A DNA stretch of 23,931 nt from a bacterium (GTDB lineage Bacteria; Electryoneota; Electryoneia; Electryoneales; Electryoneaceae), in NCBI GenBank assembly GCA_043801585.1, contig JAZDLX010000138.1, positions 1 through 23,931 of the forward strand. The letters are read 5' to 3'. Position 1 is the stretch's first letter, and the number at the start of each line of letters is the position of its first letter. Under the pieces are notes generated by a model that saw only the letters and a program-made list of their open reading frames with translations, did no database searches and was not told the origin of the DNA. Of this stretch, positions 20,802 through 23,931 are shown one piece after another. The position numbers and the translations under genes are program-made.

Positions 20802-21392
20802 ATGGCCTACCGTCCGAGCCGCAAGAGAAAGACGACGCAGCCCGGCGTCGAGACGAACATCACCCCGGTGATGAACCTGGTGGTGGTGTTGATTCCCCTG
20901 CTGCTCTCCGTGGCTCAATTCGTCAACGTCAGCCTGCTCGATTATCAACCCCCTCCGGCGGAGGACCTTGCCAACGCCGAGCCGGACAGCCGCGATCTCC
21001 GGGAACGGCTTGAACTTGTCATCAACGTCGTTCCGAACGGTTTCGAGGTTTCACTGTTCGGTGCGACGAGCGGGCGGAATTTCAAACGCATACCGCTGAC
21101 ATCGAGGGGCGTTCATGACATCGAGACGCTTCGTCTGGAGTTGGTAAGGATTCGCCGTGACATCATTGGGTCGCCGATTGATACCGTGGAGGAGGTCGAT
21201 CCTGTGACAGGGATGCCCCTGCGCCGTCCGGTCTACCGTTTTCCCGACGCGGAAGTGGTCAATGTCGCTGCGAAAGGCAACACACCGTGGCAACTCGTGG
21301 TCAGCGTCATGGATGCTGCGCGGAGCTATACGGATGAGCGGGGAAGCCGTCATCCGCTATTCGCCCTGCCACGTCTCGGTCAGATTCAATAG
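20802..21392 (+). CDS. ExbD/TolR family protein (TM Asp replaced by Asn)
   Basis: NITPVMNLVVVLIPLLL TM segment; C-terminal TPWQLVVSVMDAAR. Confidence 0.85.
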   Translation: MAYRPSRKRKTTQPGVETNITPVMNLVVVLIPLLLSVAQFVNVSLLDYQPPPAEDLANAEPDSRDLRERLELVINVVPNGFEVSLFGATSGRNFKRIPLTSRGVHDIETLRLELVRIRRDIIGSPIDTVEEVDPVTGMPLRRPVYRFPDAEVVNVAAKGNTPWQLVVSVMDAARSYTDERGSRHPLFALPRLGQIQ

Positions 21393-21401
21393 GACGCGGC
21401 G

Positions 21402-21929
21402 ATGGCTTTTGCACCTTCGAAACGGCGGCGATTCACTACCCAAGAAGCGGGACGAGTATCGCTCACCCCGATGATGGACATGATGACCATCATCCTGCTC
21501 TTCCTGCTGAAAACCTATTCCGTCGCCGGCGCGCTGCTTTCCCCCGCTATCGGAGATCTGCCCGTTTCCGAATCACGAACCGAACCCCGTCGTACGCTTT
21601 CGGTTGTTTTGACTACGGACGGCCTCTTTGAAGAGGCCGAGGTGGGCAGCGATCAGGAATCCGGGATCGGACGGCTGATCGTGTCCACGAAAGAGTTCGA
21701 CAACGAAGCATCCGTGTCACTGCTCAGTCTTGAATCGTGGCTGGCGGATCGCAGGGAACTCGAACGGTCGCTCGGCAAACAGGTGACCAGCCGTGAGCTG
21801 ACCGTCCAGGCGGCACGGGGGGTGCCCTACGCTTGGGTGCTGAAATTGATCAATGCCGCGACTCTTTCTGATTATGACGTCTTCGAATTTGTCGTGTTGA
21901 AATCTGCCGAGTCCGGAGGTGGACGATGA
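21402..21929 (+). CDS. ExbD/TolR family protein (AglS-like)
   Basis: LTPMMDMMTIILLFLLKTYS TM segment with the conserved Asp; C-terminal VQAARGVPYAWVLKLI. Confidence 0.87.
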   Translation: MAFAPSKRRRFTTQEAGRVSLTPMMDMMTIILLFLLKTYSVAGALLSPAIGDLPVSESRTEPRRTLSVVLTTDGLFEEAEVGSDQESGIGRLIVSTKEFDNEASVSLLSLESWLADRRELERSLGKQVTSRELTVQAARGVPYAWVLKLINAATLSDYDVFEFVVLKSAESGGGR

Positions 21930-22897
21930 GCCGCCTCCATGATCCGTTCCCGCGCGAATTCCAGGCGAGGCCGTTCGGCGACCTCGATCGAACACTCCTT
22001 TTCCTGCTGATGCTGTTTGCGACGGTTTCGATGCCCACGATCTGGCGGTTGAAGGATCTCCCGATCCGGGTGGTGACACAGCATCAGCGAGAGGAATACC
22101 TGCGAATTATCTACCGTGCCCAACCGCCTGCGGGGGAAGCGGCTCCGAGGGCGGGAGAGGGTCTCGTCGAAGAGGAGGGGGTGGTGCCGGGAGTCGAAAA
22201 GGCTCCCGGACGCGAGACGGTGCGCCAACGTGAGGAGCGTCGGCGGCGGGAAGCGCTGGCCCGGACGGAACGCAGGCAGACCCGTCTCGCGAAAGCCCGT
22301 AGCACGGGAATTTTCACCGCGGCAGGAGCGCAGATGCCATCGTTCTCCAGTTTCAACGCGGGGGCGCTGTCATTGACCGGCGGGAGCCTGGAGGGGCTCG
22401 AGGTGGGGAGTGTCTCGGAACTCGTGTCGTCCCCCGATGCGGAGGCGATCGCCGGTTTGAGAGAGAGGGGGTTGCTGAACGCTCCGCCACCGACACCGGA
22501 TTTGATCGGAAACGAGCTGGAGGATGTGGATCTCGCGCTTTCCGAGGCACAGGTGGTGCTTGATGCGTTGCCGAAAGTACGCGGAAGGGCGTCGGAGCAG
22601 GAGGCGCGGAGCGAAGCGGTGTTGCAGCGTGTCATTGGAGTCGAACTCTCCGGCCTTCGCGCCTGTTACCTGGCGCAAAAACGGAAGGACACGGGATTGC
22701 TGGGGTCGCTGGATGTGCGAATGGTGGTCCTGCCACCGGGAGATGTCGCCCGTGTCCGATTCCTCAACAGCACCTGGTCGAACCCCGCGCTCGGGCGGCG
22801 CGTGGAACGTTGCCTGCTCGAACGGATCGGGCGCTGGCGTTTCGACCCTGCGACAGGGGGCGAAGTGACGCTTGAGTTTCCGTTGGTGTTCAAGTGA
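21926..22897 (+). CDS. TonB-like energy transducer with AgmX/PglI (GltG/J-type) C-terminal domain
   Basis: Single N-terminal TM and a charged linker. C-terminal RS..LQRVI..LRACY....D.GL.G...RMVV...G.V....VERCLLERIGRWRF..VTLEFPLVF. Confidence 0.85.
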   Translation: MSRLHDPFPREFQARPFGDLDRTLLFLLMLFATVSMPTIWRLKDLPIRVVTQHQREEYLRIIYRAQPPAGEAAPRAGEGLVEEEGVVPGVEKAPGRETVRQREERRRREALARTERRQTRLAKARSTGIFTAAGAQMPSFSSFNAGALSLTGGSLEGLEVGSVSELVSSPDAEAIAGLRERGLLNAPPPTPDLIGNELEDVDLALSEAQVVLDALPKVRGRASEQEARSEAVLQRVIGVELSGLRACYLAQKRKDTGLLGSLDVRMVVLPPGDVARVRFLNSTWSNPALGRRVERCLLERIGRWRFDPATGGEVTLEFPLVFK

Positions 22898-22907
22898 AGG
22901 GAAAATG

Positions 22908-23931
22908 TGTCATTGCCAGGGTTCTGACACTTCGGGATCCGCAGCTAACTCCATTATAGCCTTCGAACTTGAAACCCATTGGAGATCACCGCGCCCTCCC
23001 GCTGGCGCGTGAGTGCTGGTGATGACACCTTAATTGTCATTGCCAGCTATCACGTCTTTTTGTGATGGCACGGCAATCTCCAAAGTATGCTGGAATTTTA
23101 AATCCATTGGAGATCACCGCGCCCTCCCGCTGGTGCGTGAGTGCTGGTGATGACACCTTAATTGTCATTGCCAGCTATCACGTCTTTTTGTGATGGCGTG
23201 CAATCTCCAAAGTATGCTGGAATTTTAGATCCATTGGAGATCACCGCGCCCTCCCGCTGGCGCGTGAGTGCTGGTGATGACACCCTTTTGTCATTGCCAG
23301 CCATCACGTCTTTTTGTGATGGCGCGGCAATCTCCAATAGGTGTCCGGCAGGGGACTGATGATGTCAAGAACAAAAACTTACTTTGTTTACATCATGGCG
23401 AACGAATGGAATACCGTCCTCTATGTCGGCGTGACGAATGACATCCAGCGGAGAATCAACGAGCATAAATGTGGTGAAGGTAGCGTGTTCACAAGAAAAT
23501 ACAAGGTGAACAAACTGGTCTATGCTGAGGAGTTTCGGAACATCGATGAAGCGATCAGGGCTGAAAAGTCTTTGAAAAGAGGAACAAGGGCGAGAAAGAT
23601 TAAATTCATCGAATCTGTGAATCCCCAGTGGAAGGATCTGGCCAATTCCTGGTAAACTGCAAGATACGAAAATCAATTGGAGATCACCGCGCCCTCCCGC
23701 TGGCGCGTGAGTGCTGGTGATGACACCCTTTTGTCATTGCCAGCCATCACGTCTTTTTGTGATGGCGCGGCAATCTCCAAAGTCTGCTGGAATTTTAAAT
23801 CCATTGGAGATCACCGCGCCCTCCCGCTGGCGCGTGAGTGCTGGTGATGACACCTTAATTGTCATTGCCAGCCATCACGTCTTTTTGTGATGGCACGACA
23901 ATCTCCAAAGTATGCTGGAATTTTAAATCCA
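22908..23931. repeat. BIME-like array of alternating inverted GTCAT-tagged palindromes (A/B), period 127-128 bp, running off the window end
   Basis: A copies (49 bp): 22979-23027, 23107-23155, 23234-23282, 23677-23725, 23804-23852. B copies (48-49 bp): 23035-23083, 23163-23210, 23289-23337, 23732-23780, 23860-23908. Degenerate B at 22908-22954. Linkers of 6-7 bp and near-identical 23-bp spacers. Confidence 0.95.
23359..23655 (+). CDS. Standalone GIY-YIG nuclease embedded in the palindrome array
   Basis: YFVYIM..LYVGVT, RR..EH, catalytic Glu in AIRAEK, and C-terminal NPQWKDL. SD-like AGGGGA. About 44% GC by hand count. Start could be 23362. Confidence 0.92.
   Translation: MMSRTKTYFVYIMANEWNTVLYVGVTNDIQRRINEHKCGEGSVFTRKYKVNKLVYAEEFRNIDEAIRAEKSLKRGTRARKIKFIESVNPQWKDLANSW

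Follow-up and report, generated by a model that had tools for sequence, protein, structure and literature searches.

An array of hairpin repeats at the end of the analysed stretch of DNA, together with the small GIY-YIG gene enclosed in it, probably represents a nuclease and hairpin-repeat locus of the Ssn type. Its product is predicted from the sequence to bind two hairpin variants, A and B, in single-stranded DNA and to cut a few nucleotides 5' of their GTC tag. The analysed stretch, referred to here as the window, corresponds to the complete contig C15 (23,931 nt) in a draft genome that comprises 225 contigs and 3.28 Mb with a GC content of 56%. The locus is a real and well-formed member of the Ssn/SRM system and not a new class, and the picture drawn in 2025 is unchanged by it. 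Its value lies in adding a well-resolved example to a family of single-strand nucleases known mainly from Neisseria biology, and in showing that the published search pattern overlooks long modular hairpins.

The combination of GTCAT-tagged hairpins and small GIY-YIG nucleases was described as the Ssn/SRM system by Chenal et al. (Nat Commun 2025;16:2388, PMC11893778). According to that article, small GIY-YIG genes (ssnA) of many phyla are bordered by copies of the Neisseria repeat NTS (CGTCATTCCCGCGMAVGCGGGAATCYRG) and of related hairpins, termed SRM. SsnA of Neisseria meningitidis, a protein of 94 aa, is reported there to bind its hairpin only in single-stranded DNA; its cuts fall a few nucleotides 5' of the tag and are likewise confined to single-stranded DNA, with duplex DNA and RNA left intact. 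Cutting is governed by the three nucleotides (GTC) before the palindrome and binding by the C after it, and the exchanges Y6A, Y17A and E64A abolish cutting. Activity in Neisseria is also lost when the palindrome sequence is changed and the hairpin is kept, and the published enzymes cut specifically at their own hairpins (PMC11893778). In their Discussion, the authors already liken the NTS-ssnA-NTS arrangement to insertion sequences and to REP/BIME/RAYT systems. Two statements of a preliminary description of the window are superseded by these reports. It had held that no mobilising enzyme was known for GTCAT palindromes, whereas such hairpins are bound by Ssn nucleases, which cut next to them, and it had drawn an analogy to SLX1 and the cutting of branched DNA, whereas the published SsnA cuts single-stranded DNA only. 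Full-text searches of PMC and bioRxiv returned no paper joining GIY-YIG to repetitive extragenic palindromic repeats and none of relevance for GIY-YIG with REPIN; for an SsnA GIY-YIG single-stranded nuclease from 2025 onward, Chenal et al. was the only result.

The hairpin array and the enclosed nuclease gene

The array extends from position 22908 to the contig end and consists of five A hairpins on the minus strand, five B hairpins on the plus strand and one degenerate B, with a period of 127-128 nt according to repeat finders and an nhmmer profile (TRF: period 128, 93-94% matches). A and B are mutually inverted, and reverse-complemented A is identical to B at 34 of 49 positions. The degenerate B (22908-22951, plus strand) begins 11 nt past the stop codon of an upstream ORF of 323 aa; its 5' tag and arm are intact and its 3' arm is decayed, and nhmmer recovered it as a partial match (22905-22937, E 0.54). 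It is followed by A1 (22976-23031, minus strand, nhmmer E 1e-15), which has a GTC tag, an ATCACC/GGTGAT outer stem, an inner hairpin and a CTCCAA tail, and by B1 (23034-23085, plus strand, E 7e-11), which is built in the same way around an ATTGCC/GGCAAT outer stem. A2 (23104-23159, minus strand, E 1e-15), B2 (23162-23212, plus strand, E 4e-7, with a single deletion in the 3' arm) and A3 (23231-23284, minus strand, E 4e-15) lead up to B3 (23287-23340, plus strand), the left boundary of the gene cassette.

The GIY-YIG gene (23359-23655, plus strand) fills one B-to-A interval, which measures about 333 nt in place of the usual spacer of about 21 nt. Hairpins flank it at a distance of 19 nt on each side, B3 before the ATG and A4 (23674-23727, minus strand, inverted relative to B3) past the stop codon as the right boundary of the cassette. 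B4 (23730-23782, plus strand), A5 (23801-23856, minus strand) and B5 (23859-23910, plus strand) were, like A4, detected with nhmmer, and the contig ends 21 nt beyond B5 within a B-to-A spacer. Synteny with a sister species and the nhmmer profile indicate that the array runs off this contig and resumes on contig C77 (positions 1-370). Sequence, repeat finders and nhmmer thus agree with the layout given in the preliminary description, five A+B units and a degenerate B around a 98-aa GIY-YIG gene, and realignment gave exactly its count of identical A/B positions.

Each unit opens with a (G)GTGTC tag. An outer stem of 6 bp, with the sequence ATCACC in A and ATTGCC in B, then encloses a short linker and an inner hairpin with 7-10 bp, and CTCCAA follows its returning arm; the tail of the hairpin unit is ATCTCCAA. 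With a length of about 46 nt, the hairpin is modular and combines a conserved outer stem with a variable inner hairpin. Folded as single-stranded DNA and compared with shuffled sequences, B reached -13.5 kcal/mol (z -5.1, B3) and A -13.5 kcal/mol (z -2.9, A4). A strict test that demands GTC upstream of the palindrome, a stem of 6 bp and C downstream of it recognised 8 of the 11 units. The published SRM pattern, with its maximum of 35 nt, matched none of the 11 array units because these are longer than that maximum. No promoter-like or terminator-like sites were found in positions 22700-23931, and Rfam returned only two snoRNA matches at chance level, far below threshold, so that assignment to a known RNA family is unsupported. 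Upstream of the array, positions 20802-22897 contain two genes assigned to the ExbD family (Pfam PF02472; the first falls slightly short of the cut-off) and, after them, the 323-aa ORF, which has no Pfam match; this operon is 78% identical in a same-genus genome.

The 98-aa product is a single-domain protein in which Pfam PF01541 spans residues 8-81 (E 8e-18) and no other domain is present, and it falls below the length of 150 aa used for single-domain GIY-YIG proteins of the Ssn family. The GC content of its gene is 43.4% compared with 56% for the genome, which places it in the lowest 2% of genome windows. An N. gonorrhoeae ORF of 94 aa served as the SsnA reference; it was found by tblastn of a plasmid collection, in N. 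gonorrhoeae chromosomes filed as plasmids, and was identified by the descriptors of the paper (94 aa, Y6/Y17/E64, nine NTS within 1.2 kb) and not by accession. The window protein is 41% identical to this gonococcal counterpart over 85 gapless residues (85/94; pairwise BLASTP E 8e-21), and the counterpart was matched at E 9e-12 in a tblastn search of 7.3 Gb. Its Tyr6, Tyr17 and Glu64 align without gaps with Tyr11, Tyr22 and Glu69 of the window protein. Chenal et al. delimit the family by blastp (E < 1e-10, at least 75% cover) and by cd10448 (GIY-YIG_unchar_3) as the top CDD match (PMC11893778), and the E-value and cover obtained against the gonococcal counterpart lie within these blastp limits.

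A UPF0213/YhbQ-type identity of the protein was also considered and was rejected, since a YhbQ-like GIY-YIG protein of Neisseria reaches only 28% identity to it (E 1e-9) and requires a gap between the Tyr motifs, compared with 41% and E 8e-21 for the SsnA counterpart. Among solved structures, only UPF0213 proteins were matched (PDB 1YWL, EF2693, E 1.5e-8; PDB 1ZG2, BH0048, E 4.8e-7), and NCBIfam gave sub-threshold matches only. The representative genomes of N. lactamica NS19 and N. mucosa contained a YhbQ-like GIY-YIG protein of 91 aa and UvrC and no SsnA; the NS19 locus located with the published ssnA primer had no GIY-YIG gene.

Further small GIY-YIG frames occur elsewhere in the genome that contains the window. 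A second Ssn-like gene (C212:12835-13158) encodes a protein 46% identical to that of the window. A GTCATCCCCCGGCTTGACCGGGGGATC hairpin precedes this gene by 21 nt, and its upstream flank alone is visible because the contig breaks off 30 nt downstream. A third frame (C174:22621-22818, 91 aa, Pfam E 3.6e-12) is below tblastn similarity to the window protein, and no hairpin was found within 20 kb of it. The presence of several nuclease-hairpin pairs within one genome is a point of local interest.

Repeat copies in the genome and in a sister species

A search of the whole genome with the nhmmer profile (E < 1e-3) detected 66 copies on 33 contigs, and the strict pattern GTCATYRCCAN{20,36}GGYRATCTCC found 49 copies, compared with none when the pattern was read backwards. 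The pattern is not a product of chance, given the contrast between 49 and 0 and the folds that surpass those of shuffled sequences (z -5.1 and -2.9). The 49 strict copies represent 42 distinct sequences, each with a different inner segment, and 39 of these 42 segments fold at z < -2 relative to shuffles; the inner stem is therefore free to vary and yet remains self-complementary. Most copies are extragenic, with 11 of 66 located in open frames of at least 150 aa compared with 90% of 660 random sites.

The A/B hairpin is the commonest hairpin repeat of this genome. Outside the array, it occurs as 17 doublets and 17 singletons, and 15 of the singletons are A. One A is paired with one B in 16 of the 17 dispersed doublets: 13 are convergent, with the tags pointing outward, and three are divergent, the remaining doublet being A+A. 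Convergent doublets have spacers of 11-65 nt, mostly of about 20 nt. In its arrangement, the prevailing dispersed unit thus corresponds to the two ends of the B-gene-A cassette. A gap of 335 nt between hairpins on contig C151 was found to contain other hairpin families and no gene.

Several other hairpin families, among them an NTS-like family (18 copies) and an ACCCCC family (8 copies), are present in the genome without an adjacent gene. One spacer (C78:129100-129640), located downstream of a tRNA gene with the anticodon GTC as judged by eye, harbours four hairpin families. Its contents include a long B+A doublet, an inverted TGTCATTGCGAGCGAAGCGAAGCAATCTC unit and a short GTCATTGCCCGGCTTGACCGGGCAATC hairpin whose outer stem is that of B. 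This short ATTGCC hairpin has about 30 matches with 92-100% identity in the same-genus genome G001.

Comparison with relatives showed a marked difference in copy number, which rests on two genomes: 49 strict-pattern copies in this genome compared with 8 in the sister species of the same genus, and none in 39 other relatives. No cognate gene was found in the assembly of the sister species, which is 94% complete, and the repeats therefore persist there without the enzyme. The interval that separates the 323-aa ORF from aspS measures at least 1.4 kb in the window genome; its orthologue in the sister species spans 234 nt and contains a single B-type hairpin, with neither the gene nor an array. A search for empty sites of the dispersed copies gave no clean one in the sister genome, which is 72-78% identical, with 72-74% around the dispersed copies, and whose contigs break at these spacers.

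Association of gene and hairpin among homologues

Homologues of the nuclease are present in 31 of 40 related genomes (32 of 41 including the genome of the window), and 80 loci from metagenome contigs were added. The best homologue reaches 54% identity in the 40 relatives, 49% in the same-genus species and 61% in metagenomes. At 87 of 108 loci, one further locus having been dropped for its short flank, the gene is spanned within 200 nt by an exact inverted repeat that measures 12 nt or more, and the other 21 loci have no such repeat. A GTC-headed 9-mer common to both sides was found at 89 of 109 loci, compared with an estimated chance of about 1% per locus. The strict 6-bp-stem detector reported flanking hairpins at only 15 of 109 loci (12 of 29 genome loci and 3 of 80 metagenome loci) and the published SRM pattern at 9 of 109. 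The strict detector undercounts because many homologues carry outer stems of 4-5 bp, such as GTCATCCTGAG..CGAAGGA(T/C)C, and the association of gene and hairpin is visible only with tests looser than this detector. A plain count of GTCAT tag orientation did not discriminate (61 vs 56). Orientation relative to the gene is conserved: upstream hairpins lie on the plus strand in 17 cases and in 3 they do not, and downstream hairpins lie on the minus strand in 22 cases compared with 3.

The dominant hairpin type across the homologue loci is GTCATCCTGAG..CGAAGGATC, found at 62 loci; the other main types are GTCATTGCGAG..GCAATC, GTCATTCC(C/T)GCG.. and GTCATCCCC... Many of these hairpins share the combination of outer stem and inner hairpin seen in the window, and the Neisseria NTS core itself is present at some homologue loci, for example at L018. 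The exact NTS consensus was also found in at least 129 stretches of genome contigs, and among the matches listed the hosts are Dehalococcoidia, Planctomycetes, Nitrospirae, Gemmatimonadetes, Peribacteria and many Proteobacteria. Plasmid AZO_p3 of Azospirillum lipoferum 4B carries a homologous GIY-YIG gene (255506-255799) with an SRM doublet on each side, between sufB and sufC. This position within a conserved Fe-S assembly operon looks like the insertion of a whole cassette.

On a protein tree of 114 rows and 97 columns, in which most forks are unsupported and from whose count 21 unlabelled rows were left out, the hairpin type changes 17 times compared with 27-31 times in 200 label shuffles. 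Once the large ATCCT clade is taken out, 14 changes remain compared with 15-20 in the shuffles. More telling than this tree-wide count is the grouping of two paralogues of the window genome, each with proteins that bear its own hairpin type. The window protein is placed among loci of the ATTGC type, and its closest homologue (L182, 61%) has the most B-like hairpin, ..GTGGCAATCTCCAAAA. The C212 paralogue, with its GTCATCCCCCGG.. hairpin of the ATCCCCCGG type 21 nt upstream, pairs with a protein of the same-genus genome (G001:C42) that is flanked by GTCATCCCGG... Kinship of the source organisms could contribute to this tracking. These results support the preliminary description in that the nuclease gene and the tagged hairpins belong together: inverted repeats, mostly GTCAT-tagged, lie across the gene (87/108), GTC 9-mers recur on both sides of it (89/109), and hairpin type follows protein clade, on a weakly supported tree to which host kinship could contribute.

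Origin of the repeats and comparison with known systems

As a further example of an Ssn nuclease with its hairpins, the locus is predicted to encode an enzyme that cuts single-stranded DNA beside these hairpins. Since the GTC tag and the C that follows the palindrome, which govern cleavage and binding in SsnA of Neisseria, occur in both A and B, both would be putative substrates, and cuts would be expected in the A|B junctions of 7-8 nt. Recognition of both outer-stem variants by one enzyme is assumed here. Inner hairpins and spacers are common to the units of the 127-128-nt array but not to the dispersed copies, and the array is therefore probably the product of local tandem duplication. The gene cassette is AT-rich and may have been acquired horizontally, at a site that already held a hairpin. 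By analogy to Neisseria, the biological role could be the restriction or processing of hairpin-bearing single-stranded DNA.

Beyond cutting, the nuclease might also mobilise the repeats, in analogy to REPtrons and REPINs. The B-gene-A cassette would then be autonomous and the gene-less B-spacer-A doublets its non-autonomous or miniature forms, which would be cut at the A|B junctions, excised or copied, and reinserted via host repair or recombination. This reading, with one genome housing several nuclease-hairpin pairs of separate specificity, appears rather unlikely, and the same hypothesis was already raised in the Discussion of Chenal et al. (PMC11893778). It draws on the dispersed doublets, 16 of 17 of which are A+B and 13 of which are convergent like the cassette ends, which suggests that the doublet propagates as a unit, and on the gene, which is AT-rich and has no close relative (at most 54% identity in 40 relatives and at most 61% in metagenomes). 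The homologous cassette of A. lipoferum 4B between sufB and sufC points in the same direction. The 49 copies that accompany the gene, compared with 8 in the sister species and none in 39 relatives, and the orthologous spacer with a single hairpin there and an array with gene here, fit such an expansion as well; the copy-number contrast, as said, involves two genomes only. The inner hairpins and spacers common to the array units, however, fit tandem duplication better than repeated insertion, and neither a target-site duplication nor an excised form nor a clean empty site was demonstrable at the given divergence and contig breakage. GIY-YIG enzymes cleave DNA by hydrolysis, without a covalent intermediate. 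A hydrolytic nuclease alone therefore cannot transfer strands, which makes strand transfer dependent on other factors, and no further factor was identified. The statement of the preliminary description that the nuclease spreads the repeats goes beyond the evidence, both that in print and that of this analysis.

The sister species can also be read in another way, since it has a hairpin in the same spacer without the gene and 8 copies genome-wide. The hairpins could be structural or regulatory elements of the host, such as stabilisers of transcript ends or signals for replication or recombination, which spread by slippage and homologous recombination, and the gene could be a passenger that recombined into a hot spot via its flanks, with no role for the repeats. 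The extragenic position of the copies (11 of 66 in long frames compared with 90% of random sites) and the presence of several hairpin families without an adjacent nuclease gene in this genome agree with this explanation. It is nevertheless improbable, since the pairing of gene and hairpin recurs across phyla, hairpin type tracks protein clade, and matched hairpins on both sides at 87 of 108 loci are unexpected for a pure passenger. Moreover, the published enzymes are reported to cut specifically at their own hairpins (PMC11893778).

The repeats could also conceivably form a classical REP system that depends on a Y1 (RAYT) transposase from another part of the genome, in which case the GIY-YIG gene would play no part. 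REP/BIME repeats and REPINs form 'REPtrons' with RAYT (IS200/IS605-like Y1) transposases, and RAYT-associated REPs carry a GTAG tag. Candidates for such an enzyme exist, as the genome has 13 Pfam matches to Y1_Tnp, 12 of them above the curated cut-off; six of the 13 exceed 40 bits, in open frames that span 190-241 aa. The match nearest to a hairpin is 1.3 kb from it, the others are either separated from the hairpins by more than 5 kb or located on contigs free of copies, and the repeats carry a GTC(A) tag, not GTAG. A RAYT origin was rejected because no Y1_Tnp match lies within 1 kb of a GTC-tagged hairpin, and it is regarded as very improbable. This result is in line with the RAYT-independent system proposed in the preliminary description. 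The Ssn-type locus is retained as the preferred explanation, and its A and B hairpins, their junctions and the contrast with the sister species offer concrete material on whether Ssn enzymes drive repeat expansion. Should mobilisation prove true, the system would be an analogue of REPIN/RAYT built on a different enzyme, a hydrolytic single-strand nuclease.

Compared with REPtrons, the window genome shows a similar organisation: its tagged hairpins are extragenic and form clusters, two variants are combined in inverted doublets, and an enzyme gene lies between inverted repeats. It differs in that the enzyme is a hydrolytic GIY-YIG nuclease instead of an HUH/Y1 enzyme with a covalent intermediate, in its GTC tag instead of GTAG, and in that no Y1 gene is nearby; an HUH/Y1 gene flanked by repeats, the arrangement that characterises a REPtron, was not found among the 13 Y1_Tnp matches. 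YhbQ/UPF0213 proteins share the fold and size of the window protein, whereas the YhbQ-like protein of Neisseria is 28% identical and has no hairpins within 1.5 kb.

The Ssn/NTS system likewise links a single-domain GIY-YIG protein of about 95 aa, with Tyr, Tyr and Glu at the same positions, to hairpins that have GTC directly 5' and C directly 3' of the palindrome. In both cases, the gene lies between inverted copies, and tens of extragenic copies are often clustered in alternating orientation. The window differs from the described Ssn/SRM loci in its hairpin of about 46 nt with a conserved outer stem and a variable inner hairpin, compared with the limit of 35 nt in the SRM pattern. Its gene lies within a convergent doublet, whereas the genes of N. 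gonorrhoeae and Azospirillum lie between doublets. Finally, its two outer-stem variants form obligate heterotypic doublets, and these fixed pairs mirror the ends of the gene cassette.
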